From a virus (lineage: Duplodnaviria; Caudoviricetes), in the IMG/VR virus record IMGVR_UViG_3300027769_000049, positions 1-42,846 of that record: a stretch of 42,846 nucleotides of DNA, one strand, 5' to 3'. The position numbers and the translations under genes are program-made. Positions 5,586 to 35,248 of this stretch are shown one piece after another (within the stretch, counting starts at the first letter, position 1; the number at the start of each line of letters is the position of its first letter). The notes below the pieces were generated by a model, which saw only the letters and a list, made by a program, of their open reading frames with translations, did no database searches and was not told the DNA's origin.

Positions 5586-7274
5586 TCAGTTCACGGGCAT
5601 CTCGTTGGGCTGCCGGAACTCCGTTGGGGCCGAGCCAGGCTTGGGACGGATAAAGTCTGCGCCCCACCGGATGTACCCTCGCGGGTCGGTGCCGGTTGCT
5701 GTCTGGTAAAGACCGGCAATCATCGCGCTGTTCTCGGGCGTCACGGGGATTCCAAGCGCAGCGGCCCAGTTCTTGTACAGATCGGCGTCTCCTTCCAGGC
5801 CAGACCCCCTCAGAGACTGGGTGTACTCGCGGGTGAAGTCGTTCAGAAGCACAGCAGCCCCGGGGTCGTTGCTGGGGTTGAGCTGACCAGACACCATGGC
5901 CCTTGCGATCTGACCTGCACGAGACTGCTTTTGCCCCGACATCCACCGTGGGAGATGGTTTGGGTCCAGGTTCTGACCTTGGAACCGCATGTTGTAGTGA
6001 GTCTGCAACCCAGACGAGAACTGAGCGTGGTCCTTCATCTGGTGAACGTCGGCCAGGTGCTTGTCTGCCCGCCGGATCGGGTCGTTTGCTTCAGCTTGCT
6101 GCCGAGCTGATTCATTCAGCGCCTGCTGGGCCTGAAGATCGTCTTGCCCCCGAAGGACCATGGAGGCTGCATTGCCAAGACCGAGCCTTGGATTGATGAC
6201 ATGGCCCTCAAGCATGACCCGAGCCAGTTCGTCTGGAGTCTTGGCGTTCCGGAGCGACTGGCCGTAGACGATGTTTGCCACCGGGGTGTTCATCCGCCGG
6301 GCCATGTTGTCCTGCTCTGCCCGAGTTCGGACGTTCTGTCTCAGGTCAGCCTGGATGTTTGCCTTGACCCCCGAGTCAGAGAGGAACTTCTGAAGCGATG
6401 CGGCCCGTTCCCGGAAGTTCTTGCCCTGAAACTGCTGGGCAAAGTCCTGGAACTGCATCGGGGTGCCACCCTTCTGGATGACGTCCCGGTACTTGGCCCA
6501 CTGCTCGTCCAAGAATCGCTGCCCATGCCGAGCTTCGACCGACTCCCTCATGGCTTGGTTGGGCGTGTACCTGTACCCGCCGCCGGGGACATGGATGGTG
6601 TCGTACTTCCCGGAAAGCTCTTGGTGCCTGGCTTCTTTGGTGGCGATGTCAGCATTGAGCTGGGCTTGGGACTCGGGTCCGTAGGCACTGGGATCCAGCC
6701 CAAACATGCGAGCCTTCCCGGCCCTCATGCCTGCCGTTGATTTGTCAACGGGGAGAGGTTGCATCGGTGGCTTGAGCATCCCGCCGTCGATGGCAGCGAC
6801 GTAGTTCGTCCCCTTGGGGATGTCGCCTTGCCCCACTTTCTCGGCGTACTCTGCCTGCCGCCACTTCTCGGAGCTGTTGAGGTCGATCGCCCCGAGCCTC
6901 GGATCATTGGCGAGGCCGAGCAGGCCAGCAGCATCCTCGGGGATCTTGATCTGAGGGCCTGCCATGCCCGGGTCTGGGGCTCTCATGCCGTACCCGCCCT
7001 GCCCACCCTGAAGACGCTGGTCCCAGATCCTGCCAGCCTTTGGGCCGTGCGGCATCTCTTGATTGGACATGGGCAGGTGGCGGTTCATGGACTGCTCGGG
7101 GGTGAGCTGCTGCTGCGGAACGCCGTCAGCCACTCCCCGCCGATTTTCCAGACCGTCTCCGTCCCCGGGCTGTGGTCCCATGGCCGGGCCAAAGCTCGAA
7201 GCCCTTGCCCTGGCTGCCTCTCGGACTCGGGCAAGTCGCTCTTGTTCTCTCCTGCCGGGAGTGCCGTACATCAC
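5586..7274 (-). CDS. Putative internal virion/ejection protein (562 aa, Q/M/G-rich)
   Basis: Long ORF coupled to the upstream gene by a GTGA overlap at 7271-7274; lies among ejection-type genes. Confidence 0.5.
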   Translation of the reverse strand: MMYGTPGRREQERLARVREAARARASSFGPAMGPQPGDGDGLENRRGVADGVPQQQLTPEQSMNRHLPMSNQEMPHGPKAGRIWDQRLQGGQGGYGMRAPDPGMAGPQIKIPEDAAGLLGLANDPRLGAIDLNSSEKWRQAEYAEKVGQGDIPKGTNYVAAIDGGMLKPPMQPLPVDKSTAGMRAGKARMFGLDPSAYGPESQAQLNADIATKEARHQELSGKYDTIHVPGGGYRYTPNQAMRESVEARHGQRFLDEQWAKYRDVIQKGGTPMQFQDFAQQFQGKNFRERAASLQKFLSDSGVKANIQADLRQNVRTRAEQDNMARRMNTPVANIVYGQSLRNAKTPDELARVMLEGHVINPRLGLGNAASMVLRGQDDLQAQQALNESARQQAEANDPIRRADKHLADVHQMKDHAQFSSGLQTHYNMRFQGQNLDPNHLPRWMSGQKQSRAGQIARAMVSGQLNPSNDPGAAVLLNDFTREYTQSLRGSGLEGDADLYKNWAAALGIPVTPENSAMIAGLYQTATGTDPRGYIRWGADFIRPKPGSAPTEFRQPNEMPVN

Positions 7275-13880: not shown

Positions 13881-14705
13881 TCACCCGAGGAGTGCTTGGC
13901 GAAATGGAGAAAAGCCTTCTGACTTCCGGCCGTTGACGATGGTGGTTCCGCCAAGACCGGCGGCCTTCATCAGCATGGAGTTCCTTTGGTTCTTTTGCTG
14001 GGCGGCCTGCTGTGCCATTGCCATACCAGCACGTTGCTCTTCCTGCTTGGACTGAAGAGCCATCCTGGCGATGTTGGCTTCATGCTCTCGGTCAGCCTGA
14101 TCGTTGGCCTGGGCGACTCGGGAGTCCATCTCCCGCTCCCAGGCCTTGTTCGTGGCCGAGATGGCGTCGTTGTAGGACTGAAGGCCCTGCTGCTGCATGG
14201 CAACGCCAGGGTGAACGAACTGCTTCTGCTGCTGCTGTTGGGCCTGCTGTTCTTGCTGCCCCTCGGGCTGCTGATGGGCTCCGTCCCCCGCCGCCTGCTT
14301 GGCTGGCTTGGTTGGCGGCGGGTTGTTGAAAGCCGCCATAGGGTGGATCGCCCCTGAAGCAATCGCGGGCTGGAGGGCTACCGGCGGAATAGAGGGCGGG
14401 AGCGTTTCCGGCTTGGAGAACTGGGCAAACATCCCCGGAACAGCCCGGGCTTTGGCAAGGTTCTGCCCCTGAATCCCGGCAATCTCGCTCCGTGACTCCT
14501 GCACCTGAGATGCGTGGTAGTGCGACCGGGAGGGATGCCCCATAAACCCAGGGGCCTGGGCGACTGGGCCCATGGGTCCGTGGCCGGTAAACCCGAAGGC
14601 GGGCTGCCGAAGCTGAGGCCGAGCGGGCTTTGGTCGCTGACCAGGCAAAGACTCAGGGAATCTGCCCTGATTCTCTTCGTCACTCCAGGTTCTTGCCATG
14701 CCCAT
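13881..14705 (-). CDS. Q/P-rich putative internal virion protein
   Basis: AGGAGG Shine-Dalgarno 8 nt upstream; ends RQALLG. Confidence 0.6.
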   Translation of the reverse strand: MGMARTWSDEENQGRFPESLPGQRPKPARPQLRQPAFGFTGHGPMGPVAQAPGFMGHPSRSHYHASQVQESRSEIAGIQGQNLAKARAVPGMFAQFSKPETLPPSIPPVALQPAIASGAIHPMAAFNNPPPTKPAKQAAGDGAHQQPEGQQEQQAQQQQQKQFVHPGVAMQQQGLQSYNDAISATNKAWEREMDSRVAQANDQADREHEANIARMALQSKQEEQRAGMAMAQQAAQQKNQRNSMLMKAAGLGGTTIVNGRKSEGFSPFRQALLG

Positions 14706-14714
14706 CAGGTGGTC

Positions 14715-14738
14715 CTCCTAATGGTTCATGGCCCCCCT
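14715..14738 (-). promoter_or_regulatory. Conserved motif A, copy 1 (AGGGGGGCCATGAACCATTAGGAG)
   Basis: 23/24 identical to 28530-28553; similar to 42037-42061; always just upstream of a minus-strand gene. Confidence 0.6.
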
Positions 14739-15736
14739 GCCGCTGATTGGTCATCCCCGCCAGCCAGCAGGCATGCAGTTTCAATCAGCGCGGCAGCCCC
14801 GGCTCGTGTAAACAGCCACGAGCTTCTCTCCTTGGCTTGCTCCTCTAGCCAACCAATCACTGTCTCCGTGTTATCCCTCACCCATTGGACTCCTTTCTCG
14901 TCCATCTCCCTGGCCCTGGCGTTGCAGGGGCAGTTCTCGGTGGCGACGTACCCCATGGCGGCGAGGAGCTTTTTGAGTTCGGTGCCGGGCCCGCCTCGGG
15001 GTGGAGCAACGCAGGCAATCTGGCACTCCTGCTCGGTCGGGTACCCCTGGTTCTCGTTGGCGACCACTCGGAGTTCGCACTTCCCGTCAGGCTGGCACAC
15101 CCACCGGACGAGATCCCCGCCGCCTTCCCCGCAGCATCGGTCCAGCCGCTCCTTGATCCTCTCCAGCTCGATGCTGATTTCGTTGATCTGGGCACAGACC
15201 GATCGGTTGGTGGCTCTCCCGTTGCCAGAGCAGCAGACCAAGTCGCCCTTGATGGCTGGCTTGCACGGCAGGGAAGGCGGGGTGGAGATGTCGGGCAGGC
15301 ACTCTCGGGCCTTCTTCCTGAACCACTGGCAGTTCAGGATCTTGTCCAGCAGGCCGGGGAGAAGTCCGTAGATGATCCCGGTCAGGCCGGTGAGGTCCAC
15401 TTCGCCGTCTCGGCCAGCCTGTCCCGTCTCGCCGTCTTGGCCAGACTCCCCGTCCTTCCCGTCCACGCCGGTGCCGTTGTAGCCCCGCAGGCCGTCCTTG
15501 CCGTTCCGGCCGTCCTCGCCGTCAATGGCGGTCTGCTCCTTGGAACGGAACCTGTTCTTGAAGCTGGATGATCGGGCTTGGCTTGCGGTGATCTCCCGAG
15601 AGCTGGAGTCTGCCTGCACCTGACTGGAGTCGGCCAGGGTGAGCAGTCTCTGGGCGATGTCGAGGGAGTGGTTGCTGGGGACGCCGGACTGGGTGAGCAG
15701 CTCCCCGATCTGCTGGGCCGGACGAGGATCAGGCAT
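14726..15736 (-). CDS. Cys-rich protein with short collagen-like G-x-D tract
   Basis: Start MPDPRPAQQ overlaps the upstream stop; DGEDGRNGKDG tract; C-terminal GPGTELKKLL...CPCNARAREMD...IGWLEEQA module. Confidence 0.65.
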   Translation of the reverse strand: MPDPRPAQQIGELLTQSGVPSNHSLDIAQRLLTLADSSQVQADSSSREITASQARSSSFKNRFRSKEQTAIDGEDGRNGKDGLRGYNGTGVDGKDGESGQDGETGQAGRDGEVDLTGLTGIIYGLLPGLLDKILNCQWFRKKARECLPDISTPPSLPCKPAIKGDLVCCSGNGRATNRSVCAQINEISIELERIKERLDRCCGEGGGDLVRWVCQPDGKCELRVVANENQGYPTEQECQIACVAPPRGGPGTELKKLLAAMGYVATENCPCNARAREMDEKGVQWVRDNTETVIGWLEEQAKERSSWLFTRAGAAALIETACLLAGGDDQSAAGGP

Positions 15737-18677
15737 CTTCCACTCCCTGGAGGTCGATCTGGTGGACCACCACCGGGCCCGCCTCTGTCTGCTCCCCGTG
15801 AAGCCCGATGGCAATGTGGGTGTCGTTCCCAGAGAAGTCCGCGATCGTCCTGCCTGCAAACAGGGCTCGGGCAATGCCGTTGGTGGGGGCGTCCTCGTGG
15901 GGCATGGCGATCATGTCCACGAAAGCGTCCGGGGCCTCGTCGGAGTGGACAAACCCAACCCCTCGGTCTCGTCGTGCCACTGCCTTCCGGGGCTGGTCTG
16001 AGCCGTTGTAGAAGACCTGGAGGTTCAGCAGGCAGGATTCCTCGGTCGGCTTGTAGACCACCGATGCGGTTCGAGACATCTGCTGCCCGCCGTTTTTGGC
16101 CGTCTCGTCTGTGACGAAGGCGGCGTTCCCGGACTTCCATCTCCACGAAACCGAGGCCCCGTCGTCGGTGAGCCCCACGCCAAGCTGGTGAAGCCCCGAG
16201 TCAGAGCCCAAGTAGGAGACCAGACTCCCGGTCGCGTCCCTTACCTCACACCCAGAGGAGAACACCTTGGGATAGTTCTCCATCCAGAAGCTCTTGGTGT
16301 CAGGGTCGTAGACGATCTGTCTGGTCGGGTACTTCCCGGCGTCACCGTCGAACGACACGAACACCCGGATCACCCCGAGGTTGCGGTCGGCCCGGATGAA
16401 GAACCACTCCTTTTTGGAGAAGTCGATCGTCTGAAGGCTGGCGTCCGAGTTCACCCGGAACATGGTGTCGAGCTGCGGGCTGAGATGCTCCACCTGCCCC
16501 TGCTGGTCGAGCGAGTAGAGCCCCATGTCGTCGAGGATGAACAGGGTGCCCTGGTAGATGTCCCAGCACCTCTGGCTGATCACTCCCCGGTAGGCCACAA
16601 GGGAGACGGTTGCGTCGAGGGAGGGGTCGTTGACCCAGGTGAGCCGGTGGCAGTGTCGGGACTGTCCAACCACGAGAGCCCCGGCGTAGGGGATGAGAGC
16701 CGTGATGTAGTCCGTGTCTCTGACGTTCGTCTGTAGAACAAGCTCGTTGGTCTCGGGGACGGACTCAGGCTCATCGGCTTCGGAGTAGAGGAGCGTATTG
16801 GGCCGATGTCCGGTGGTGTCCACCCCGAGAACCGTCCGATCTTGAAACACAACGCCAACAGAAAAGTCAGAGCTAGCCACGCCGTATCTGTTCGCGTTGA
16901 GGGCTCCGTTGCCAAGCAAAATGGGAAGTCCAAGGAACCCCTCCCTGTCAGCATTGGTCAGGTCGTAGTCCGAGAGCTTGTCCTCAAACTTCGTCGGTGA
17001 CCGGAGGGTGGCAACGCGGAACAGAGTGGTCGCCTGGTTGCTTGTGGACCGCCAGAGTTCCACCGCAGTCGCACCGCTGGGGATGGGGATCGGCAGCCAT
17101 GTGAGCTTGGCTGCCTGGTCGCCACAGTCCACCTCGTTCACCGGGGACAGCGAGGAGTAGATCGGCCCGCCAGCAGAGGCTGGGACCGAGTCATTCACGA
17201 AGCGGTAGTAGCACTGGTACTTGCCTCGGAGGGTGGCCCGCATGATGGCCAGACCCCGAGCCTTGCCGACATCCCCGGTGGTGTCCAGGAGAGTCGGAGG
17301 GAACAGGTAGGTCTTGTTCGGGTTGGGGATGTTGAGCTTGGTGATCTCTCCCTTGCAGTTCACCTCGGTTGTGATCGTGTCTCCGTCTTCGGTCACGAAC
17401 GTCGGTGGAGTGAGGTAGCCAGAGCCCGGCTTGGTCAAAGTGGTCTTCAGGGCTCGCTGCCGGTAGGTGCTGGCGTTGATGACCGTGAGCCGGTCTGGGC
17501 ATCGGGGGTCGTCCTGGCAGTACCCTCTTGCCTTGAGTTGGCACCGGGCTGTCGTGCTGCACACCGGCCCGTTGAACCCAGTGCCTGACTGGTAGAGGGA
17601 GGCAACGTGCATGGTTGCCGTGACTTCGTCTCCTGGCTTGTACCCCGAGCCGAAGTCGTAGACCTGTACTTGGATGTCGAGGTCTTTCAGGTCCTGGCCA
17701 TCTCCGGTCGGGCACTGCACCCGGTTCCAGAACGAAGACGGGAAGGTGATGAAAGCCTTGGCCCCTCGGCCGGATCCGCCTGTGGCCTCGACGATGAACC
17801 CGTTCCCTTGCCGGATGTACTCCTGCCAGCAGACCCAGAAGAAGTTGGGGAACTCGAACAGCTCCCAGAACACGATTCCGGTGCTGGGGTCACCCTTGGC
17901 ACAGCCGTCCTTCAGCTCCAGGACAGCAGCCGCACCCTGGCCGGTGACAGCAAGGCCGGGCTGATCGGTGAACTGGACGCACGGGGTGGTGGTGTAGCCA
18001 GTCCCACCATCGGTGATCTCTACCTCGGAGACCTGTGCAGAGGCGATCCGGCAAATGGCGGTGGCTTGCCTGCCAGACCCGATCGGTGGCGGGGTGACCG
18101 GGGCGTCGGGGAGCAGGGGGTTGATGGGGGCGACGGACGATGGCGGGCCGATGTAGACCTTGGGCGGCAAGTGGTACCCGTTCCCGGCGTCGGTGATGTC
18201 CACTCGGGCGACGTAGAAGCTGGCGGTCTTGTCCACCTCGATCTCGGGCTTGGAGGTGGGGGCTTCCATGCCCACCATCCTCATCTTCCCGTCTGTGCCT
18301 CGGACCATGCCCCGCTTCCCGTACCCCTGGTACAGGTACACCTCTCCCCTTCGGCCCTGGGAGAAGCTGACGGGGTGGTCGGGCGAGAAGGCCCCTTTTA
18401 CGAGGAGACTCTCTGCAAGGCCGGAATCGACGGCGAACTGGACGATGTCACCTTGGTCGGTCTGCCCGAGAACGAACTGCGGCTGGCCCGCTCCGGTGGT
18501 CAAACCCCAGAGTTCGAGCATTCGTGTCGCCGTTGTTACCACAGACCGGCTGCCTCCCCGTACCGTGAGCTGGCCGGGGATCAAGGACATGCAGTTGGTC
18601 TGGACCGTGGCCGCACCGGCAGGGAGCCCGTAGGGTGAGGCTGCCTGGATGTACCCCAGCCACTTGTTGATTCTCAT
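15729..18677 (-). CDS. Putative tail nozzle/tubular protein B-like with inserted GxGY repeats (982 aa)
   Basis: Beta-rich; LLYSEADEPESVP and ITALIPYAGALVV propeller-like blades; directly after adaptor and before ejection genes. Confidence 0.6.
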   Translation of the reverse strand: MRINKWLGYIQAASPYGLPAGAATVQTNCMSLIPGQLTVRGGSRSVVTTATRMLELWGLTTGAGQPQFVLGQTDQGDIVQFAVDSGLAESLLVKGAFSPDHPVSFSQGRRGEVYLYQGYGKRGMVRGTDGKMRMVGMEAPTSKPEIEVDKTASFYVARVDITDAGNGYHLPPKVYIGPPSSVAPINPLLPDAPVTPPPIGSGRQATAICRIASAQVSEVEITDGGTGYTTTPCVQFTDQPGLAVTGQGAAAVLELKDGCAKGDPSTGIVFWELFEFPNFFWVCWQEYIRQGNGFIVEATGGSGRGAKAFITFPSSFWNRVQCPTGDGQDLKDLDIQVQVYDFGSGYKPGDEVTATMHVASLYQSGTGFNGPVCSTTARCQLKARGYCQDDPRCPDRLTVINASTYRQRALKTTLTKPGSGYLTPPTFVTEDGDTITTEVNCKGEITKLNIPNPNKTYLFPPTLLDTTGDVGKARGLAIMRATLRGKYQCYYRFVNDSVPASAGGPIYSSLSPVNEVDCGDQAAKLTWLPIPIPSGATAVELWRSTSNQATTLFRVATLRSPTKFEDKLSDYDLTNADREGFLGLPILLGNGALNANRYGVASSDFSVGVVFQDRTVLGVDTTGHRPNTLLYSEADEPESVPETNELVLQTNVRDTDYITALIPYAGALVVGQSRHCHRLTWVNDPSLDATVSLVAYRGVISQRCWDIYQGTLFILDDMGLYSLDQQGQVEHLSPQLDTMFRVNSDASLQTIDFSKKEWFFIRADRNLGVIRVFVSFDGDAGKYPTRQIVYDPDTKSFWMENYPKVFSSGCEVRDATGSLVSYLGSDSGLHQLGVGLTDDGASVSWRWKSGNAAFVTDETAKNGGQQMSRTASVVYKPTEESCLLNLQVFYNGSDQPRKAVARRDRGVGFVHSDEAPDAFVDMIAMPHEDAPTNGIARALFAGRTIADFSGNDTHIAIGLHGEQTEAGPVVVHQIDLQGVEDA

Positions 18678-19717
18678 CAGGCACCCCCGCCGTCCACGAC
18701 ACCTGGCCCAGTCCCGGCTGCGTTGCCACCATCGAGGTTGTCGTTCGTGACAGGAGGCTTCACTCCATCGGTCACCCCTTCGTCAGGGCCAGCCCGGAGA
18801 TACCAGAACGAGTAGTAACCGAAAGGCAGGGACTGACGCTGGCCAGAGATCGGGGCCATGACGTCGCCCTCGAATGCCATCCGAAGGTCTCGCCCGTAGA
18901 CCCCCATGGCACCCTCCAGGTTCTTCCCGGAGAGCCGGGCCAGCCAGACTTCGGCCCCTGAGAGCAACGCCGTGTACATCTGGGGTGAGATGTCCAGGTA
19001 GTCAGTGATGATGTACTTGGTTCCGGCCGGGTACTGGAGCTGCCCGGCTGGTGACCAGACATGGATCGTGTCTTGGTCGTCCACCTTCTGGATCAGGGCC
19101 TCGTCCGAATAGGCGTTCATCCCCTGAAGAGACTCGGGGTGCTTCTTGGGGTCAGCACTCACCCGGACCACGGACCCCTGCATGAGGTTCGTGAAGGTGG
19201 TTCCCGTCCCCTGAATGATGCTGCCGTCCCACTGGATGGTCCCGGCGCGGGCCTGGGGCTCCCATCCGGTGAACCTGAGGTCCTTGGGCCTGCGGCGGTA
19301 GGTGATGGTCACGAAGTCATCCACGGCGAACCCGTTGAAGACCCGGACCTCGAACCTGTCGGGGGCCGTCTTGGAGGGCAGGATGGTCCAGACGATCCGG
19401 GCCAGGTTCCGCCACTGGGAGTTCAGCAGGCGGTCCCACTCAACCGGGGTGACGTAGGCCACCGAGACGTTGGTGAGCGGGAGGACCAGCGAGTCCACCG
19501 AGTTCACGCCCCACGGGAGCAGGTAGGTGACGATGGAGTTCTGGCCGCCAAGGTTGAACTTGTCCGTGGTGTGGTACCACTTCCATGAGTCCCGAGCCGT
19601 GACCAGATCCCGATACCCGTGGAACAAGGACTGCCTGAGCAGACGATGCTCCTGGTCCTGGGCACCACCTCCGGTGCTGGACATCAGGTACTCGATGGCA
19701 TCAAGGGCCGTGTACAT
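18677..19717 (-). CDS. Putative head-tail adaptor/tubular protein A-like
   Basis: Helical N-terminus then W-x-W (DSWKWY), Y-x-LP, ITYRRRP, TALLSGA; synteny; AGGAG SD upstream. Confidence 0.6.
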   Translation of the reverse strand: MYTALDAIEYLMSSTGGGAQDQEHRLLRQSLFHGYRDLVTARDSWKWYHTTDKFNLGGQNSIVTYLLPWGVNSVDSLVLPLTNVSVAYVTPVEWDRLLNSQWRNLARIVWTILPSKTAPDRFEVRVFNGFAVDDFVTITYRRRPKDLRFTGWEPQARAGTIQWDGSIIQGTGTTFTNLMQGSVVRVSADPKKHPESLQGMNAYSDEALIQKVDDQDTIHVWSPAGQLQYPAGTKYIITDYLDISPQMYTALLSGAEVWLARLSGKNLEGAMGVYGRDLRMAFEGDVMAPISGQRQSLPFGYYSFWYLRAGPDEGVTDGVKPPVTNDNLDGGNAAGTGPGVVDGGGA

Positions 19718-19727
19718 CCTTCACTCC

Positions 19728-21014
19728 TCAGGGAATCACGGGCCCGGCACCAGCGGAGACAGCTCCACCTTCGCGGCTGTAGATCGGGCCGTTGTTGACC
19801 GTCCTGGCCACGCACCGATACCGGACTGCGTTGTTGATCACCCTGGCGAAGATCAGGAGGGAAGTCCCAGCCGGAAGTCCCTGAACGGCACCGAGAGGCT
19901 GGCCCGACCCGGCGTCGATCCACACCCCGCCGATCGAGTCCCTTCTCTGCCAGGTGTAGGTCACGGGACCATCGGTCGAGAAAGCCCTGGCTTCAAGCGT
20001 GACCTGAGTTCCTTCTGGGTGGTTGGTCGAAAGAAGCGGCTCGGTGGCCCAGTACAGGCCGTTCCCGCAGCACGGCAGGACGAGGTTCAGCACTTGGTTG
20101 GGGGGAGTGCCGGTGATCGTGGCTGAAGCCGTGTCGCCCGAGGTGACGATGCCGATGGTCAAGACGTTGGCGGGACCAGCCGGGCCAGCGGGTCCGGCGT
20201 CCCCCTTCAGTCCTTGGATCCCTTGGACGCCGGGTTCACCCTGGTCTCCCTTGGGGCCTTGGGGTCCGACTGAGCCCTGCGGTCCAGCACTGCCAGCCGG
20301 TCCCTGCTGACCCTCGATTCCCTGGATCCCTTGGGGGCCGACATCACCCTTCGGGCCCTGTGGTCCCTGGGGCCCCTGAGAGCCGATGGAACCAGACGGT
20401 CCCTGGATTCCACGTTCCCCTTGGGGGCCGCGAATGGGACCGACGTTGATCCAGTTGGTGCCTGTCCACATCACCCCATCGCCCGGCTGACCAGCAACGG
20501 CCCCGAGCGGGATGGGAGTGACGAGCAGGTAGAGGTCACCGATGTCTGGGGTTGCCGAAGGGGGCCAAGTAGTGACCGTACCTTCGAGGGTGAGGGAGTT
20601 CCCTTGGGGACCCTGCGGGCCTTCGTCTCCCTTCGGGCCGGGCTCGCCTTGGATTCCCTGCGGTCCCTGAGGGCCAGCGGGCCCGGCCTCGCCCTGGGGG
20701 CCGACGTTTCCCTGGGGGCCAATGGAGCCTGGCAGGCCACGCTCGCCCTGATCTCCCTTCAGCCCCTGGGGACCGGCGGGACCGGCAGCACCAGCCTGAC
20801 CCTGAAGACCTTGCACCCCCTGGATTCCTTGAGGGCCAACGGGGCCGCGAAGACCCTGGTAGGGCAGGTTCACCCACGAGGTCTTGGCGTCACCGATCTT
20901 GGTCTTGCCGGTGTCTTCCTCGTAGCCCCACTCCCCCGAGTCCAGGGTTGGGTTCTTGGCCAGGAAGTTGTTGGCAGTGTCACGACGGACTTGGATCTTG
21001 GCGAAGGTGGTCAT
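19728..21014 (-). CDS. Collagen-like fibre: Mtd_N-like N-terminal domain + Gly-X-Y repeats + C-terminal Ig-like domain
   Basis: KIQVRRDT...NPTLDSGEWGYEEDTGKTKIGD...WVNLPY; two long GPQG tracts; VTLEARA...VTYTWQR...YRCVAR. Confidence 0.8.
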   Translation of the reverse strand: MTTFAKIQVRRDTANNFLAKNPTLDSGEWGYEEDTGKTKIGDAKTSWVNLPYQGLRGPVGPQGIQGVQGLQGQAGAAGPAGPQGLKGDQGERGLPGSIGPQGNVGPQGEAGPAGPQGPQGIQGEPGPKGDEGPQGPQGNSLTLEGTVTTWPPSATPDIGDLYLLVTPIPLGAVAGQPGDGVMWTGTNWINVGPIRGPQGERGIQGPSGSIGSQGPQGPQGPKGDVGPQGIQGIEGQQGPAGSAGPQGSVGPQGPKGDQGEPGVQGIQGLKGDAGPAGPAGPANVLTIGIVTSGDTASATITGTPPNQVLNLVLPCCGNGLYWATEPLLSTNHPEGTQVTLEARAFSTDGPVTYTWQRRDSIGGVWIDAGSGQPLGAVQGLPAGTSLLIFARVINNAVRYRCVARTVNNGPIYSREGGAVSAGAGPVIP

Positions 21015-21022
21015 CTGTGGGC

Positions 21023-22162
21023 TTACGCTTTCTTGTTCACGCCGAGTGCATTCAGCTCTTGCTGACTCAGGTCGATCACCATCCTGTACCCATCCTGGGA
21101 GACCGCCACAAAGGACTCGCCGTCACTTGCGACTGCCTTCCACACCGCTGTTGGGAGCTTCCTCTCCATCCACTTGTTCACTCCACCGGATGCCGAGAAG
21201 TCTCCGCCTTCCATGCCCGGCTTGCCGATGAAGCAGACAGAGCTGAAGTTGCTCCTGTCGAACCCCAACGCACACCAAAGATCGAGCCTCGGCGTGTAGC
21301 AGATCGACTCGATTGACTCGACACCCGGCAGCTTCCCGTAATTGAGCCACGACACACCGTCATCCTTCGTGAGCCACATCTGCTTGCCTGGAGGAACGGC
21401 TTGACCAACTGCGGTCCTCTGGTCTGTCGTGGAACACAAGACGTTGGTCCCATCGCTGGCAGAGTCGTAGACCCATCCAGCACTGGCAGTGTTCGCTCCC
21501 CATGGGACGGCGCGGGGGAGGGTGTAGGCGGCAGCGATGTTCCCAGGCTGAGTGGCGACGGTGTTCCACTGGCTGAACAGGAGGAACCTTCTGCCGGTCC
21601 AGACCGTGCTTGTTATTGCTGGGTAGCTGGCGTCTGTCCTGGCATCAAAGGTCGTGCAGTTGGTCGTGTATGAACTGCCAGCACTGGGGCCCGGAGCAAT
21701 GCCTGCGTACATCCACCCATCGGGACTGGCATCCAGGCCGAGGATCGCCCAGGCATTGACGGTTGTGCCCAGAGATGGCTTGACGAAGAGTGGGTTCCAG
21801 AAGTCAAGGTTGGGGGTGTCTTGAGCCAGCAGCTTGTAGTGCTGGTTGACCCCCGACCTCAACCACTTGGATGAGCATGCCCAGAAGCCGGGCCGGTAGC
21901 TGATGCGGTCGTAGATTTGCTTCTGGCCGAAGAACGGGAGCTTGACGTCACGCCAGGTGTAGCCTCCGTCAGAGGAGACGCTTGCCCCCGGAGCAGTGAC
22001 AGCAGGCCCGTCCCCGGCATCTGATCCCGAAGCAGCCCCGAGCTGGTGCCCGACAGCCACGAACCGGCCGTTCCCGTATGCAATGGAGAAGTACCCCGTG
22101 TCTGGCGACCGGGTTATGGCTCCACGGATTTTTGCACCGGCAAGCCGGATAGGGGTGGTCAT
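21023..22162 (-). CDS. Beta-propeller (Asp-box/BNR-like) putative receptor-binding protein
   Basis: IAYGNGRFVAVG, SSDGGYTW, TKDDGVSW, VASDGESFVAV blades. Confidence 0.65.
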   Translation of the reverse strand: MTTPIRLAGAKIRGAITRSPDTGYFSIAYGNGRFVAVGHQLGAASGSDAGDGPAVTAPGASVSSDGGYTWRDVKLPFFGQKQIYDRISYRPGFWACSSKWLRSGVNQHYKLLAQDTPNLDFWNPLFVKPSLGTTVNAWAILGLDASPDGWMYAGIAPGPSAGSSYTTNCTTFDARTDASYPAITSTVWTGRRFLLFSQWNTVATQPGNIAAAYTLPRAVPWGANTASAGWVYDSASDGTNVLCSTTDQRTAVGQAVPPGKQMWLTKDDGVSWLNYGKLPGVESIESICYTPRLDLWCALGFDRSNFSSVCFIGKPGMEGGDFSASGGVNKWMERKLPTAVWKAVASDGESFVAVSQDGYRMVIDLSQQELNALGVNKKA

Positions 22163-22325: not shown

Positions 22326-23618
22326 TCACTTGTTGGGGTTGGCGAGGTCACCGATGGCGATCCAGGTGTTGGACGCAGTCTTGATGAGACGAACGGTGGT
22401 GTACCGCCCGGAGAACTCCACATCGGCATTCGCCCCGCCGAAGTAGGTGTTGCGGACGTTGTAGAACAGGAACGTGCTGGAGTCGCTGGTGATGCCTGCG
22501 GTCCCGGTGGCGGTGTTGAGGATCTCGACCACGGACCCAACAGGGATCGCCGCATTGGTGGACAGGTTGATGTCAACCCGGTTGGCACCAGAGAGCAGGA
22601 TCACCTTGCCGATGTCGGTGGCGGCGAGTGGCCTTGCTCCGTCCGAGACTGGAACGAACTGCATCGGCCCGAGGGCCTCAGAGTTGATCGAGGCTTGACG
22701 GAAGGTGTTCGCCGCCCCCTGAAAGGCAGTGTTCCCAGGGACAGTCATGTCTCCGTTCGCCGCCCAGGACATCCGGTTAGCGTTGGCCGTGACGTCAAAG
22801 ATCCTGAACGTACCGGTGGCCTGAGCCTGGATGCGGTAGGAGCAGGTGGTGTTGCCGGTGTTGAAGTCTTTGGAGGCGAGGTTGAACTGACCGGCTTGGT
22901 TCGTGACGTTGAGAACAGCCAGGCGTCCGTCCAGGTTCGCCACCCCGTGACACAGCATCCCCCGGTACCCAACGACAAAGTCTTCTGCTGCCTCGACGGA
23001 GGAGGACTGACCGGCGCTGAGGTCACCGACCGTTGCCCCAGGCACATTCAGGTTGCCTGCTCCGTCGAGGGTCATCTGGGGAGGGGGCTGCGTCAGGTCG
23101 GTTTCGTTCACGTTCAGCCGGAACGAGAGCAGATTGCTCGGCCCAAACTCGATCGCGGCTCCAGCAATCAGGCCTTTCCCGTCCGCGTTGAGCAGGATTG
23201 CAGTCGTGCTGTTTGAAGGACCACCGATCAGGTCTAGCTGGCTTTCGTAGAGCTTCGAGCTTGGAGAGGAGTCATGCTTTCGCTGGCCCAGCACGAAATG
23301 TTCGGCATGCAGGTATGGTGCGCTTGGCGGGGAGTGGCTCTTCCCCCAGACGACCTGGTAGGGACGGGTGTAGAACACAGCGTTTTCGTCGCCGCATGCC
23401 GTGCCCGAATACGTCGAGTTGTCCACCGGGGGGTCGTCTTGGGTTTGGACTCTGACCGGGACATTCGCGAGGTACACCAAGCCGTCTGAGCCAAGGGTGA
23501 TCAGGTTCCCGCAGTCAACGCTGTAGTCCTGGGGTCCGGCCTCGCCCTGGGGTCCGATCAGAGACTCCCACTTGGTGCCGTCGAATACGCGAACGTCGAT
23601 GATTTCGCCCTGTGCCAT
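22326..23618 (-). CDS. Fibre protein with beta-rich shaft and C-terminal knob
   Basis: N-terminal VRVFDGTKW; MTLDGAGNL / MSWAANGDM shaft repeats; C-terminal TDIGKVI...IPVGSVVEI...LIKTASNTWIAIGDL module common in phage fibres. Confidence 0.7.
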   Translation of the reverse strand: MAQGEIIDVRVFDGTKWESLIGPQGEAGPQDYSVDCGNLITLGSDGLVYLANVPVRVQTQDDPPVDNSTYSGTACGDENAVFYTRPYQVVWGKSHSPPSAPYLHAEHFVLGQRKHDSSPSSKLYESQLDLIGGPSNSTTAILLNADGKGLIAGAAIEFGPSNLLSFRLNVNETDLTQPPPQMTLDGAGNLNVPGATVGDLSAGQSSSVEAAEDFVVGYRGMLCHGVANLDGRLAVLNVTNQAGQFNLASKDFNTGNTTCSYRIQAQATGTFRIFDVTANANRMSWAANGDMTVPGNTAFQGAANTFRQASINSEALGPMQFVPVSDGARPLAATDIGKVILLSGANRVDINLSTNAAIPVGSVVEILNTATGTAGITSDSSTFLFYNVRNTYFGGANADVEFSGRYTTVRLIKTASNTWIAIGDLANPNK

Positions 23619-23652
23619 TGGTCACCGATGAGGGGTTGGTGTTCGGGGTGGG

Positions 23653-23693
23653 ACAACAAGGCAGGGGAGCAGCTCTAGGCTCACTCCCCTGCC
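23653..23693 (-). terminator. Putative intrinsic terminator/hairpin
   Basis: Perfect 10-bp stem GGCAGGGGAG (23660-23669)/CTCCCCTGCC (23684-23693), followed by TTGTTGT on the minus strand, in an 88-nt intergenic gap. Confidence 0.55.
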
Positions 23694-23706
23694 CGTGTCT
23701 TGGAGG

Positions 23707-24465
23707 TCAGTTCGTGACGATCCAGATAGCACCCGTCCTGGGAAGGATGGGGGTGGCCGACTGAACGAAGCACTGGGCGTTCTCGCCATCGACGCCGTCA
23801 GCTCCGTCAGCACCGTTGGCACCATCGGCACCGGGATCACCCTTGGCTCCATCGGCCCCCTTCGGGACGGTGAAGTTCAGGATGGCAGCAGTGGCCGTCC
23901 CCGAGTTGGTGACCGCCACCGGGCCTTCGGTCACGGTCCCCACGGCGATGGTGGCTGCCGTGCCGGGCTGACCCTGGGGGCCTTCCGGTCCTTGGATCGG
24001 GCCGACGTTCACCCACGAAGCCCCGTCGTACAGCACCCCATCGCCGGGCTTGGAGCCAGCCGGGGCACCGGGCGGAACCGGGGTCCCGATGATGTAGAGG
24101 TCGTTGAGGGCCGGGGTTGCCGTGGGGGGCCAGGTCGTGGTCGTGCCCTTGATCACAGCAGCCGCGCCGACATCACCCTTCTCCCCCTTGGGAATGGAGA
24201 AGTTCAGCACGGCGTTCAGGCCGGTGCCGACGTTCACCACCTGAGCCGGGTCGCCGGGGTTGACCGTGGACACCGTGCCGACACCCACGGTTGCAGACTG
24301 CCCGTCCGCTCCGTCAGCACCGTCAGCACCCGTGTCGCCCTTGTCCCCCTTTGCGCCATCGGCACCGGGGTTCCCCTGGTCACCCTTGGCTCCGTCAGCA
24401 CCAGCGGGGCCCACGATGGAGATCCACTGAGTACCGTCCCAAACCCGAACGTCTTGAGCAGCCAT
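23707..24465 (-). CDS. Collagen-like fibre protein
   Basis: Start MAAQDVRVWDGTQW, 4 nt after the upstream stop; GAD/GDK triplets; two VGTV...LNFxxPKG modules. Confidence 0.8.
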   Translation of the reverse strand: MAAQDVRVWDGTQWISIVGPAGADGAKGDQGNPGADGAKGDKGDTGADGADGADGQSATVGVGTVSTVNPGDPAQVVNVGTGLNAVLNFSIPKGEKGDVGAAAVIKGTTTTWPPTATPALNDLYIIGTPVPPGAPAGSKPGDGVLYDGASWVNVGPIQGPEGPQGQPGTAATIAVGTVTEGPVAVTNSGTATAAILNFTVPKGADGAKGDPGADGANGADGADGVDGENAQCFVQSATPILPRTGAIWIVTN

Positions 24466-24469
24466 GGTC

Positions 24470-24844
24470 TTAGCCCTGAGGGTTGATGTTGATGATGTCG
24501 ATCCCGGTAGATGGAGGAGTGATTCCCCCAATGCTGGTTCCACCGCCAGTCCCAATGGAGGTGACGGTGGTTGGTTCTGGTGTCCCAATGGAGATCCCAA
24601 TGGGTTGTTCTGGTTGCTTGATGGTCACGGTCCCTATGTCCGGCGTTACCTTGGTGGTGGTGGTCGAGAACCAGATGTCTCCCTTTCGGGGTCCGACTGG
24701 CTGATCGGCCTGTGGTCCGTAGACGGTGACCGACTCTCCGTTCTGCCCAGGGACTCCCTGTGGGCCTTGCGGTCCCGTACCACCACCTCCACCTCCGGAG
24801 ATGGGGACCCACTGAGTTCCGTCCCAGAAATGTGCCTGTGCCAT
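24470..24844 (-). CDS. Short collagen-containing fibre/linker protein
   Basis: MAQAHFWDGTQW, GPQGPQG, PRKGDIWF. Confidence 0.75.
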   Translation of the reverse strand: MAQAHFWDGTQWVPISGGGGGGTGPQGPQGVPGQNGESVTVYGPQADQPVGPRKGDIWFSTTTTKVTPDIGTVTIKQPEQPIGISIGTPEPTTVTSIGTGGGTSIGGITPPSTGIDIININPQG

Positions 24845-24873
24845 GGTTATTTGCCGATTTTGGTGTGCATGGG

Positions 24874-27135
24874 CTAGTAGTCGGCCTTGAAGCGGATGCC
24901 CGAGAAGTTTGCTTCGTTCGACCTCGCTCCGGGACTACAGGAGACGTCTCGGCTCTTGCTGCTCACTGAGCAGAACCCGTAGGTCACCGCAGACCCGACG
25001 AGCCGCATCGCCAGCGGGTAGTTCGCGTCGATCTCTGCCAGCGGGAACTGCGGGGGAAGTCGCAGCGGCACCCACGAGCCGCTACCAGCACCGAATGACA
25101 GGGTGCCCTTGAGTTCGATGAAACCACCAATCATCCTCGCCTGAATCTCGGTAGAGACAGACTCCCGTGAGCCATCCATACGAATCATCCATGTCCAGTC
25201 GATGTCGGGCGGCGGCATCTTCGTACCACCAGCCAGCATCTTCTTGACCTCGTCCAAGACCGACTTCTTGAAGTCAGCGAGTGCCGGGTCGTTGATCGTG
25301 GCAGCACCGACCGGACTGATGGCAACGAGCTTGGCGTCGATCTGGGACCGGGAGTACAGGGACAGGGCCATCTGGTTGTCGAAGTCAACCTTCGACATGC
25401 CGTCACCCTTGAGCATGTACCGGGCGTCACAGATGTCTTTCCGCCAGTACAGGTTGGGGTCAAAGGTAGTGGGAGCAACGGCTCGGTCTTCCATGGCCTG
25501 GACCCGAGCCGCGATTGGCTCGAAGTCTGACCTCAGGGCGACGTAGTCATTCACCATGCCAACGGCGAACACCAGCCGAGGACCAAAGCCCTCACCCGTA
25601 TCCGTGTAGGTCAGGGCGGCAGGGGGAAGTGCTGTGTCACCAAACCCGACCGCCTGAGCCACCAAGGTCTTGGCCAGGATCGCCTGGGTGTTGTCCTGCT
25701 TCTTGGCGTACCTGTCATCCGACTCGGCTCGGGTGTAGATCGAATCGAAGACGGCTTGCAACTGAGTCGTGATGAGCGTCGTCGTCGAGAGCGGCGCGTA
25801 GCCAGCGAGATCGGAAGAGAAGGCGACCGTCTCCAGCTTCGACGGATCGCCAACATCTGCGGCGTAGAGAAGTCGCCCGCCGCCCGATGCAATTGCGGAC
25901 TCGTCACCGAAATTGATCGCCGTTTGCCCAAGATGCAGCGAATCAACGTAGAGGTCTTGCCCGACCAGCGCCGCCACCACGTTCGTCCCCGTGAGGTCCG
26001 TTTGCAGGAGGTATTTCCCGTCCGACTCCACCTTCGTGTAGGTATCCGACTTGTCCGCTTTCAAGCCGATCGCGGCGTCGGAGGAATCCTTCACCTCCAT
26101 GATGGAGTTCATCAGCGTCGTGCCGAGCGACGAGACGGTGGTTTTGTCGGCCTTCGTCTCCAGCCCGGACAGGCAATCCTGCGTCGCCGTTGCCAGCCCT
26201 TGAAGGAGTTGATTGGTCTGGTCGATGTCGGACTGGGTAAGGAACGTCTGCTGCTGTGAGGCCAGGGCGGCGATGTCGGCAACGGCAGCATCGAGGGCGG
26301 TCTTGTCGCCTTTTAGAGCCAGCGAGTTGCCGATGGAGGTGAGAACAAGCTGGAGTTCGCCAAAAGTCTGGTCCCTGAGTTCCTGGTCCCAGATCGCGGC
26401 TTGGTCGGTCGCCAGCTTGGCAATGGCATCGACCTCGGTCTTGTCGTAGTAGTCGCTCAGGTCAAACCCGTTGGCAACCACAGCCTCAACGATGGCTTGG
26501 ACTTGCTCCTGGGTGAGCGTCCCTACCTGCACGTTGGCGATGGCGTCGGTGAGTTGCTGCTGGGTGACCGACTCCAGGACATCCCCTCGGCCGACCGGCA
26601 CAAACTGGTCGTCGGGGAGTGCAGCCTCCAGCCGGAAGAACACCTGGCCCTCCTGGCGAACGAACCAGGACGGCGGGGTGCCAACTGACCCAGGGGGAGG
26701 AACGAAGTTGCTGAGACGACCGACAGCAGTGGCGGCTGGTGAGAATGACTGGAGCCTTAGCTCCTCGCCGTTGGGAAGAGGCTTGCGACTGACCAAGAGC
26801 AGGACGGAACTGGTCGTGAACCAGTGCAGGCCGTCTTCGTAGGGGGAGACGGCAGCGACCGCACCGGCTGGAGTCAGGCCGGGACCGAAGTCCGGGGCAG
26901 CTTCGTCGTGCAGCTCGATGGCTGGCGGCACCTGCGGCGGCAGGGCGGCGAACAGGTCATCGACTTGGTCGCGGGTGTAGCGGTTGGCGAGCTGGGCGTT
27001 GAGGTCCTGGACTGCATCCACGAACTCGGGCTTGGTGACCAGGCCCGACAGGTCCACGGTGCCGCCAGCACCACCGGCAGCGGCGACCCATCGGCCACCG
27101 GAGTAGACAGCAAGAGCTTTGGTTTCGGCGGGCAT
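24874..27135 (-). CDS. Long fibre protein with coiled-coil stalk and C-terminal receptor-binding-type beta domain
   Basis: Six Y-[TDWS]-[KR]-x-x-x-D stalk motifs (YTRDQVD, YDKTEVD, YTKVESD, YTRAESD, YWRKDICD, YSRSQID); C-terminal GFIELKG...LRLPPQFP. Confidence 0.7.
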   Translation of the reverse strand: MPAETKALAVYSGGRWVAAAGGAGGTVDLSGLVTKPEFVDAVQDLNAQLANRYTRDQVDDLFAALPPQVPPAIELHDEAAPDFGPGLTPAGAVAAVSPYEDGLHWFTTSSVLLLVSRKPLPNGEELRLQSFSPAATAVGRLSNFVPPPGSVGTPPSWFVRQEGQVFFRLEAALPDDQFVPVGRGDVLESVTQQQLTDAIANVQVGTLTQEQVQAIVEAVVANGFDLSDYYDKTEVDAIAKLATDQAAIWDQELRDQTFGELQLVLTSIGNSLALKGDKTALDAAVADIAALASQQQTFLTQSDIDQTNQLLQGLATATQDCLSGLETKADKTTVSSLGTTLMNSIMEVKDSSDAAIGLKADKSDTYTKVESDGKYLLQTDLTGTNVVAALVGQDLYVDSLHLGQTAINFGDESAIASGGGRLLYAADVGDPSKLETVAFSSDLAGYAPLSTTTLITTQLQAVFDSIYTRAESDDRYAKKQDNTQAILAKTLVAQAVGFGDTALPPAALTYTDTGEGFGPRLVFAVGMVNDYVALRSDFEPIAARVQAMEDRAVAPTTFDPNLYWRKDICDARYMLKGDGMSKVDFDNQMALSLYSRSQIDAKLVAISPVGAATINDPALADFKKSVLDEVKKMLAGGTKMPPPDIDWTWMIRMDGSRESVSTEIQARMIGGFIELKGTLSFGAGSGSWVPLRLPPQFPLAEIDANYPLAMRLVGSAVTYGFCSVSSKSRDVSCSPGARSNEANFSGIRFKADY

Positions 27136-27143
27136 GCTGATCC

Positions 27144-28031
27144 TCAGTAGGCGAAGGCCGAGAAGCCGTTGAAGTCACAGTGAGTGAACTTTCCACCTGT
27201 GGCGCAGACCTTCAGGATCCCGTCAGTGTCGAGCATGACGGAGATGAATCGGTGGGTCACCCCGTTCTCCTTGCCGGTGACTACAGCCCTGGCAGCGACA
27301 AGCGGCTTGGGGAGCCGGGCAGGCAGGGACCGGACGTTGGAGTAGGTCCCGCCTGACGAGTAGGTGTAGACAAGCTCGCCTCTGATCCTGATGACACCGT
27401 TGGTCATGCAGGCTTCGATGAGTCCAGTGCCCGCAATGAACGGCATCACGGTCCAGGGGAAGTCCTCTGGAACAGTGGCATTGCCGACCATCATGGACCT
27501 GACGATGGCCCGAATCTGCGGCTCGGTCATGCCGGGGTTGGCCTGCATGATCTTCAGGACCTGGGTCTCGATCTCGGTGACGGTGGCTGGTGCTGTTGCT
27601 GGTGCAGCCTCATCCACTGGGTCGGTGGTCTTGGCGGCTGGGTAGAGCCACAGGTCCCCGGTGTTGGCGGTGGTCGGCTCGGTGACTTGCTCGAACACCG
27701 TGCCGCCGCCACCACCGCCGCCGGTTCCGGTGGCAGTCGGGTCGATCCACAGGGCACCGACTTCGGTGGCTGGAGGAGGCTGGACTGCGGAGACGATGTG
27801 CGGCGGGCCGGGGTCACCGGGAAGACCGGCAGCCCCCGGAGGGCCGGGAGGACCATCGGCACCAGCAGGGCCAGCAGCACCCGCCGGTCCTTGGGGGCCG
27901 GGAGTCTTGCCGATGTGGTCGGCCACCTGCTTGGCGGTGACCCGCTGCGTGACGGCCCCGTTCACCACCGGGAAAAGGGTGGAGTCGGTGACCGTTCCTG
28001 CTGACAGAGCTGAGATTTTCTGGTCGGGCAT
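27144..28031 (-). CDS. Collagen-containing fibre protein
   Basis: MPDQKISAL...FPVV...TQRVT N-domain, Gly-X-Y tract, two GxLW modules, C-terminal GVIRIRG...RSLPARLPKP domain. Confidence 0.75.
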   Translation of the reverse strand: MPDQKISALSAGTVTDSTLFPVVNGAVTQRVTAKQVADHIGKTPGPQGPAGAAGPAGADGPPGPPGAAGLPGDPGPPHIVSAVQPPPATEVGALWIDPTATGTGGGGGGGTVFEQVTEPTTANTGDLWLYPAAKTTDPVDEAAPATAPATVTEIETQVLKIMQANPGMTEPQIRAIVRSMMVGNATVPEDFPWTVMPFIAGTGLIEACMTNGVIRIRGELVYTYSSGGTYSNVRSLPARLPKPLVAARAVVTGKENGVTHRFISVMLDTDGILKVCATGGKFTHCDFNGFSAFAY

Positions 28032-28033
28032 GG

Positions 28034-28192
28034 TCAGGTACTCTGCTCTTTGCGAAGGGGGTCACCGGCTTCGGTGAGGAGCTTGAACCCGTCCTCTTGG
28101 AGGATTCGGTGGGTGACAGCAGCAGGCGGCGGCTTCGGTGGTCCCGATGCCTTCTTCCTCTTGTTGGTGAGGGTGATTTGGGAGTGGGGCAT
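28034..28192 (-). CDS. Small protein (52 aa) with ILQEDGFKLLTE motif
   Basis: Hand-translated MPHSQITLTNKRKKASGPPKPPPAAVTHRILQEDGFKLLTEAGDPLRKEQST; TGATG-coupled to the upstream gene, ends 2 nt before the next. Confidence 0.7.
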   Translation of the reverse strand: MPHSQITLTNKRKKASGPPKPPPAAVTHRILQEDGFKLLTEAGDPLRKEQST

Positions 28193-28506
28193 CAGCCGCT
28201 CGCACAGATGTAGCCTTCGATGTCCGCTCCCTCACCGACGAGGTAGGAGACGGAGTAGACGCACCCAGGGAGGGCAACGGCGTTACCCTCAGTTATGAGG
28301 GTCTCGGCTCTGTTCCCCTCTTCGTCGTACAGGGGGAACGGGGTGCCGCCCGGCTCGACCAGGCAGGACCACTGGACGGTCCCGGAGCCAGACTCAGCGA
28401 TCAGGATCCCGCCAGCCGAAGCGTGGAAGGGGATCACCTGGGAGGTGGAGACATCCGAGGTGATTTTGACCGGCATGACCCCGGCGTTGCGTTCCATCTT
28501 GGGCAT
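28192..28506 (-). CDS. Small beta-rich hypothetical virion protein
   Basis: GAGGT SD upstream; first gene of the fibre cluster. Confidence 0.65.
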   Translation of the reverse strand: MPKMERNAGVMPVKITSDVSTSQVIPFHASAGGILIAESGSGTVQWSCLVEPGGTPFPLYDEEGNRAETLITEGNAVALPGCVYSVSYLVGEGADIEGYICASG

Positions 28507-28565: not shown

Positions 28566-29102
28566 TCACGCCCGTTTTTTCCACGACGGCAGGTACTTTT
28601 CCCTTACCACTTCACCGGCTTCCCTGCGGCCAAGCCTGGGGTTCTTGGCCATCTCCTCTTTCGCCAGCCTTTTCTCCAGGCTCTTGCTCAGCGCTTTCTT
28701 CTTGGGGGCTTGTTCATGCCCCTGGTGATTGACAGCGCCGGACACAGTTAGGTTTCGAGCCTGGGCGACCTTCTTGACGTCGGATGTGTCCGAGACCCAA
28801 GCAAGCGGATCCATGTGGCCACGCTTGTCGGCCAGTCCGGAGACGTACTGCTTGCCCGAGATGTCGATGCCAGCGGCCTTGGCCTCCCGGACGATTCTCT
28901 GGGCCTGGTGGACTGGCATGTCGTCCAGCCAGTTGCCGTCGAGCCTGCCCTGCTGGAACGCCCGGTCGGTGCCTTTGGTTCCCGGAGGCTGCTGAAGGGC
29001 GCACATTTCAGCGAAAGCCGGGGTCTGCCCGTCTTCGATCATGCGGACGTAGTGATCCTGGACGTCCTTGTCAGCCAGGGCGATCGAGATGGGCATCATC
29101 AT
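28566..29102 (-). CDS. Hypothetical protein downstream of portal
   Basis: ATGA overlap with portal stop; globular sequence with basic C-terminus. Confidence 0.7.
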   Translation of the reverse strand: MMMPISIALADKDVQDHYVRMIEDGQTPAFAEMCALQQPPGTKGTDRAFQQGRLDGNWLDDMPVHQAQRIVREAKAAGIDISGKQYVSGLADKRGHMDPLAWVSDTSDVKKVAQARNLTVSGAVNHQGHEQAPKKKALSKSLEKRLAKEEMAKNPRLGRREAGEVVREKYLPSWKKRA

Positions 29103-34768: not shown

Positions 34769-35248
34769 TTACTTGAACGACTGAGTCCAGTAGGGTACGC
34801 CGCCATTGTAAGCGAGCCCCACACCAATTGCACTGTACTTCGGGTTCAGGATGTTGGCACGGTGACCACGGCTGTTCATCCATGTCACATGAACGTCCCG
34901 TGGAGTGGTCTGGCCATACGCCACGTTCTCTCCATACCCCATCTTGCTGTGATACATCCTTCGTCGAGCGGCTTGGTTCCTGCTCCACCCGCTTGCGGCT
35001 GCCATCAGGGTTGGGTCCACGCGGAGTGGGGACAACCCCCGTGACAGTCGCTCGGTGTTCACCAGCTTCACCACCTGAGACTCGAAGGTCTCGGGAGCTG
35101 CCGCCTGCTTGACGGCTGGCTTCTTGGGGGCGAGGGGCTTGGCCGGGGCGGGCGGGGCGATGACGGGGGGAGGCACGGGGGCGGGCTTGATCATCAGCCA
35201 GATGGCGTAGACGACCAGCAGGACGCCGATGGCCACCTTGGCAAGCAT
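34769..35248 (-). CDS. Membrane-anchored CAP/SCP domain protein (YkwD-like)
   Basis: LVNTER...GLSPLRVDPTL...MYHS...GENVAYG...WMNSRGHRANIL...IGVG...YWTQSF; N-terminal TM helix and Pro linker. Confidence 0.9.
   Translation of the reverse strand: MLAKVAIGVLLVVYAIWLMIKPAPVPPPVIAPPAPAKPLAPKKPAVKQAAAPETFESQVVKLVNTERLSRGLSPLRVDPTLMAAASGWSRNQAARRRMYHSKMGYGENVAYGQTTPRDVHVTWMNSRGHRANILNPKYSAIGVGLAYNGGVPYWTQSFK

Follow-up and report, generated by a model that had tools for sequence, protein, structure and literature searches.

Several ways of coupling one phage fibre protein to another have been described. Podophages KP32, K11 and KP34 of Klebsiella combine a T4 gp10-like branching domain with a conserved peptide of 29 residues (PMC13352976): a second trimeric protein uses its short N-terminal peptide to dock at an internal site of the first, and the host-binding tips are modular. 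In the BppU-BppA pair of Lactococcus phage Tuc2009, the sheet of one virion protein is completed by a beta-hairpin from another (PMC4742702), the result being described as a Titin/Ig-like composite with a C-terminal hairpin, used as a one-to-one baseplate accessory and not for joining fibre trimers. In the gp40-gp41 pair of mycobacteriophage Mysterious, a triangular fold at the N-terminus of one protein is inserted where a trimeric fibre has its C-terminal end (PMC13252515). The branched lateral fibre of DT57C, with LtfA and LtfB, is made of several gene products whose joint is not resolved (PMC10713586), and the serial T4 fibre of gp34-37 likewise consists of several gene products (PMC5537660).

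Here we analyse a fibre cassette in an IMG/VR virus record of 42,846 nucleotides (72% complete; "the window" denotes this whole stretch of DNA), whose fibre, as in DT57C and T4, would be built from several gene products. The initial annotation proposed it as a candidate for an undescribed system. In this respect it went too far, since the principle is known in phages from the KP32 docking peptide and the Tuc2009 hairpin, as those sources present them. What appears to be new is that a different domain from the KP32 and Tuc2009 joints is split and used serially; our literature search, chiefly of open-access main texts, found no paper on a split of this domain. Short N-terminal peptides of the KP32/CBA120 type are present, the plugs lying at residues 3-20 of proteins B, D, E and F, for which docking is proposed. 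However, whereas the KP32 acceptor is described as gp10-like and as serving one branch, acceptor and peptide in the window are halves of one 43-residue repeat, and this joint would be used four times, serially and as branches, and is also found fused. The five window proteins gave no Pfam or PHROG match to a T4 gp10-like branching domain, and their sockets span just 21-22 residues. A further mark of the KP32/CBA120 type is that incorporation into the virion fails once either part is lost; what the genomes of the window's relatives display is the loss of both parts together. As in BppU-BppA, the two parts make up one domain, which here also exists as a single chain; unlike the Titin/Ig-like composite, this unit has 43 residues, four predicted strands and no Ig or PDB match. 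The Mysterious joint, as described, differs in sequence, has a helix between strands and no Trp pair, and represents a cleft contact rather than a split domain. Its gp40 may belong to PF24243 (Phage_tail_C), and a comparable arrangement occurs in L066 and L076, where one gene ends in PF24243 and the next has three short repeats. This second split system, a C-terminal PF24243 motif followed by a gene that starts with three short repeats, is found in distant relatives of the window (L066:4948-6075, L072-L076).

The phage and its fibre cassette

The window phage is podovirus-like, judging from a P22-like portal, large terminase and major head protein, all encoded on the minus strand. A CAP-domain gene (34769-35248, E 4e-17) lies near the head genes, and a 1,791-aa protein (7271-12646) gives a weak FtsK-gamma-like match (E 0.003). 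Five fibre genes (A, B, D, E and F), all on the minus strand, lie in a cassette with a conserved 178-aa gene (28566-29102) on one side and a 346-aa gene (18677-19717) on the other. The corresponding interval of relatives ranges from about 20 bases to more than 10 kb and sometimes holds none of these genes, which are therefore accessory; the cassette is also exchangeable and probably serves host-surface binding. A 104-aa gene (28192-28506) is retained even where the relatives' cassette is otherwise empty. In two of the relatives, the fibre cassette has taken up a prepilin-type host gene (L037:14712-15722, L093:5685-6668), which we take to be planctomycete DUF1559-like, and on this basis a planctomycete host would be our guess. 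Ten start codons of the cassette (14341-21833) show no clear Shine-Dalgarno motif; ACC precedes five of them.

We use "socket" for the first half of the repeat (strands 1-2) and "plug" for the second (strands 3-4). The features are as follows, all on the minus strand.

19728-21014: collagen fibre gene with an Mtd_N N-terminus (PF18454, E 1.6e-8), in the same cassette and with no split half
20442-20594: intact long-loop unit in the 19728 gene, overlooked in the initial annotation
22326-23618: tip fibre F, 430 aa; N-terminal plug, beta-rich shaft, tip at residues ~319-430
23559-23597: plug P4, residues 8-20 of F; 10.2 bits, the weakest plug, included in plug alignment A2
23658-23694: RNA hairpin in the E-F gap; -31.9 kcal/mol, z -3.3
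23707-24465: extender E, 252 aa; plug, collagen, knob, intact unit, collagen, knob, collagen, C-terminal socket
23710-23775: socket S4, last 22 residues of E; 15.8 bits
24004-24156: intact (unsplit) long-loop unit, residues 104-154 of E, likewise overlooked at first
24415-24453: plug P3, residues 5-17 of E; 18.4 bits
24470-24844: linker D, 124 aa; plug, Gly linker, short collagen, socket, Pro/Thr-rich tail
24665-24730: socket S3, residues 39-60 of D; 22.8 bits
24800-24838: plug P2, residues 3-15 of D; 18.6 bits
24874-27135: fibre B, 753 aa; N-terminal plug, long stalk with repeats, tip at residues ~644-753
27079-27117: plug P1, residues 7-19 of B; 16.3 bits
27144-28031: scaffold A, 295 aa; anchor-like N-terminus, collagen, two sockets, Pro/Thr/Ala linker, tip
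27639-27701: socket S2 (FEQ type), residues 111-131 of A; 24.1 bits
27738-27800: socket S1 (HIVS type), residues 78-98 of A; 23.0 bits
28034-28192: 52-aa gene directly upstream of A; no PHROG

Collagen matches were obtained for A (E 2.9e-5), whose two sockets are connected by a Gly linker, and for E (E 6e-10). The tip domain of A (residues ~189-295) is homologous to that of B (27%, E 6e-7), a protein for which no Pfam family was matched, while the tip of F matches phrog_8780, minor tail protein (E 3.6e-7), its PDB search returning collagen or chance matches only. The Pro/Thr-rich tail of D is variable, differing between the window, L005 and L010, and its model in the Atlas is poor (pLDDT 0.42); neither D nor E had a match among cultured phages. 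The 52-aa gene carries an LQEDG-LLTE motif and directly precedes genes starting MPD/MAD-K-IS. It stays with A-type N-termini in L005, L010 and L150-152, and in a shorter form in L006 and L008; a role in connecting the fibre to the virion is possible. The E-F gap (88 nt, 23619-23706) is the largest within the cassette. Its hairpin has z < -3 in 4 of 13 folded loci, although a stem is drawn in 13/13, and the terminator call was negative. An inserted HNH-like gene (named by eye) occupies this gap in five of 13 loci (L023, L037, L044, L051, L093).

The eight motifs of the initial annotation, four sockets and four plugs, were all recovered in the five genes with scores above shuffled controls. Half-unit HMMs proved too insensitive, so we used scoring matrices, derived solely from intact units of 150 external proteins. 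In a shuffled control of 504,303 residues, sockets reached at least 14 bits 7 times and plugs at least 10 bits 26 times, and the best plug score in any other window gene was no higher than 7.2 bits. A plug lies inside the first 19 residues of 56 of 1,947 distinct proteins from the fetched loci (41 distinct N-termini), compared with 1.05 plug proteins per replicate of shuffled N-termini; these proteins are related to each other and do not represent 56 independent events. The genes are out of frame with one another, as had been noted, adjacent frames being different (2, 0, 1, 0, 2). The placement of the second halves at N-termini applies to all four plugs, but one gene start had to be corrected: the 23707 gene was listed from a TTG at 24600, whereas its true start is the ATG at 24465, the Met at which its homologues begin, and only with this change does its plug count as N-terminal.

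The intact unit and the site of the cut

The unsplit form of the domain is a repeat of about 43 residues with four predicted strands that is common in phage fibres. A search with a fused copy from L018 matched 329 of 1.84 billion representatives at E <= 0.001, many of them with up to 19 repeats, and 1,011 intact units were extracted from the best 150 of these 329 proteins. The repeat was present in 1,642 proteins among 8,000 scored candidates, and proteins carrying it belong to tail, tail-fibre and virion PHROGs; in the cultured-phage search it weakly matched 14 records. In a local copy of Pfam there was no convincing match, DUF7360 and DUF2793 being weak only, and a sequence profile search of the PDB gave neither a solved relative nor an Ig match. 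PDB searches with E and with the plug, tandem-unit and unit profiles returned collagen or chance matches only. PF26696 (PTL_trimer), DUF7360 and DUF2793 are precomputed on some intact-unit proteins or lie near them in the Atlas (0.84), and may model variants of the unit; relatives of the long-loop variant match DUF2793 weakly (E 0.013-0.018).

Two candidate homologies were rejected. Designed trefoils had been matched (E 1e-5 as the sum for three repeats), which suggested a beta-trefoil lobe, but a trefoil needs all-antiparallel neighbours while strands 1 and 2 of the unit are parallel, and the unit profile gave no trefoil match. Homology to Mtd_N or to the N-terminus of HylP was likewise dismissed (hhalign 0.2%); the positive control, A6, recovers hyaluronidase structures.

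The halves are complementary parts of one contiguous unit, as initially proposed. The socket profile aligns to unit columns 3-25 (hhalign 94.6%) and the plug profile to columns 30-43 (87.6%), with no overlap. Covariation refers to residue pairs of one and the same intact chain rather than to pairs from split partners (1,493 distinct units, taken from 232 proteins; effective number 1,087). It places strand 1 parallel to strand 2 with an offset of 15 (T13-L28, Y15-I30, T17-T32, T18-D33), strand 2 antiparallel to strand 3 with sums of 66-70 (I30-L38, L28-R40, V25-G43, L28-L38, V25-W41), and strands 3 and 4 in a hairpin with sums of 85-89; Y15-V49 and E23-W41 are coupled as well, and the contact between strands 1 and 4 may lie between chains. 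Given the antiparallel register of the paired strands in intact units, the cut is placed in the variable turn that links strand 2 to strand 3. The information lies in this register, as pairs across the cut are not enriched (12 of the 30 top couplings, with about half of all pairs crossing).

Joint presence, natural fusions and competing explanations

That the split-domain feature is real and conserved can be seen in relatives. Among 34 related cassettes, curated by hand with near-duplicates omitted, 13 contain both halves and 21 contain neither; several of the 13 are close kin, and four (L029, L036, L037, L152) stop short of the downstream marker (adaptor) gene. Socket and plug counts are equal in nine of the 13: 4:4 in the window, L005, L010, L036 and L152, 3:3 in L151, 2:2 in L037 and L093, and 1:1 in L011 (with a triple plug, judged by eye). 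In the other four, however, sockets exceed plugs by one (6:5 in L021, L023 and L029, two weak sockets included; 4:3 in L150), so the four-to-four arrangement first noted holds for the window but is no fixed rule; plugs never outnumber sockets in the 13. A cassette tree suggests 5-7 gains or losses, though its starred branches require just 2 and the rows L057, L075 and L086 were wrongly picked. A further 133 loci, collected via collagen and knob similarity, comprised 8 with both halves (about two lineages), 11 with a socket only, 1 with an N-terminal single plug only and 113 with neither; some of the socket-only loci represent intact variants or have tandem plugs as partners, L158 and L184 carrying tandem-plug genes. 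The same split occurs in unrelated phages (L098, L106, L143).

The natural fusions that the initial annotation had suggested looking for do exist. In P0093, residues 22-52 correspond to the L151 socket (62%) and residues 57-168 to the entire next plug gene (48%, E 3e-36), which begins four residues after the socket. In L151 and L152, by comparison, a linker and a tip domain come after the socket before the reading frame stops, and the plug opens the next gene. A fused unit is also present at the matching place in L018, L020, L093 and P0111, and a narrow search found no fusion at the E-F joint. Insertion into the loop of the unit would be the simplest way for a linear fibre to become branched.

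Taken together, the homology of the halves, the strand register in intact units, the fusions and the joint presence speak for the assembly by beta-strand complementation that was originally proposed, although this support is genomic only. We consider such joining the best reading and a probable one.

An improbable alternative is that each half is an independent foldon-like cap, for trimerisation or registration of the adjacent stalk, with the proteins attached to the virion by other means. The T4 fibritin foldon is a short Trp hairpin that follows a Pro-rich segment in a trimeric fibre context, and the plug, also a Trp hairpin, resembles it by eye. Collagen stalks require a nucleating cap, and in D, E and F such stalks have plugs and sockets next to them. 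Yet the foldon (PF07921) is a single, self-trimerising chain without the GD[LI]W strand of the window unit, and neither plugs nor intact units gave a sequence match to Fibritin_C (PF07921); in P0146, where a foldon-like motif stands beside three intact units (E 0.27), only that separate motif matched, not the units. Independent caps would also leave unexplained the joint presence and loss of the halves, the fusions at the exact cut, the plugs on the collagen-free B, and the chains with two or three tandem plugs beside a C-terminal socket (L011, L158, L184). Such tandem plugs would be required by a three-fold cap. Tandem plug-hairpin chains, N- or C-terminal, are found at L011:14981-15127, L158:4302-4598, L184:7790, L129:8274-9230 and L135:3154.

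It is still less probable that the halves are non-functional leftovers of gene fission. The cassette is hypervariable and absent in many relatives, and some sockets lack an evident partner (L021, L023, L029, L150), as decay would have it, but the plug Trp is invariant in 27/27 aligned plugs while the stalks diverge to 19-50%. Furthermore, the position of the plug is constant at residue 12-17 in the 56 proteins with an N-terminal plug, and the extender architecture (N-terminal plug and C-terminal socket) was scored in 41 of 72 socket-profile matches. That readthrough or frameshifting joins the halves into ordinary one-chain fibres, as E ending in a socket and F opening with a plug beyond a hairpin might suggest, is extremely improbable, given that the gap in relatives (60-88 nt) occurs in all three frames and is occupied by an inserted gene in 5 loci, and that S1, S2 and S3 are internal, with 60-200 further residues after each.

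Candidate wiring and its significance

Returning to strand complementation, D and E each bear a plug and a socket, as expected of the two linker subunits in the original proposal. S2-type sockets precede B-type plug genes and disappear together with them, both being absent where the two genes are fused; from this joint absence (L020, L037, L093, L152), the partner of S2 would be the plug of B. HIVS-type sockets accompany plugs with aromatic residues ahead of the first Trp, and the E plug adopts this pattern in L037 and L093, where D is missing (both by eye); co-occurrence in L036, L151 and L152 points to the plug of D as the partner of S1. The plug of E would then pair with S3 and that of F with S4. 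A plug gene follows a C-terminal socket immediately in 6 of 13 distinct cases, and in 11 once HNH-like inserts and GTG or internal starts are skipped, the exceptions being L007 and L020. On types that co-occur and are lost together, the likely tree is A-B (through S2), A-D (through S1), D-E and E-F, with three tips on A, B and F. However, the E and F plugs form one class, with a single difference over 20 residues in L029, which makes E-E chains or direct docking of F on D possible. Internal sockets precede Gly or Pro/Thr/Ala linkers, through which the parent chain could leave the axis.

In molecular terms, the Trp repeat would be a small domain of four strands that trimerises and occurs at intervals along phage fibres. 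A socket would end or interrupt one trimeric fibre protein and a plug would open another; three plugs would complete three sockets, rebuilding the domain and coupling two trimers end to end. Collagen and coiled stalks in fibres go with trimers, and their presence on both sides suggests that these proteins are trimeric. A C-terminal socket would thus extend the fibre and an internal one with a flexible linker would branch it, such that, on A, S2 may bear B and S1 may bear D; D may in turn bear E, and E may bear F. Binding itself, the pairings, the location in the virion and a role in adsorption are all read from sequence and are proposed in that sense. More speculatively, and in our view rather unlikely, this could be a general three-fold connector kit, in which plug-socket classes act as a loose address code, branches arise when a tip domain and a stop are inserted into the unit loop, and E, whose plug can be near-identical to that of F (L029), docks on its own socket to give fibres of variable length capped by a tip protein.

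Another pattern was observed in the same cassettes. In 7 of 7 relatives viewed, a gene ending in GG-P-V-x-V-x-G-K-[RK]-Y is followed by one starting with MPAP (for example L010:4941-6097, L036:4688-6352 and L151:9917-10957), likely a further joint. The window 27144 gene fuses the two sockets that flank this junction and carries neither motif, and in L150, where a 183-aa gene has one such ending, the next gene is a plug gene rather than an MPAP gene.

The intact repeat is common, yet it has no match in the local copy of Pfam and no solved relative detectable by sequence. With a socket of ~22 residues and a plug of ~13, the joint would, if real, count as one of the smallest couplings between trimers that we know of, and would be small enough for easy peptide tests. 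Strand complementation would also explain how uncultured phages assemble one appendage from strings of short fibre genes that lack annotation, would make the wiring of such fibres readable from sequence, and would show an evolutionary route from linear to branched fibres.
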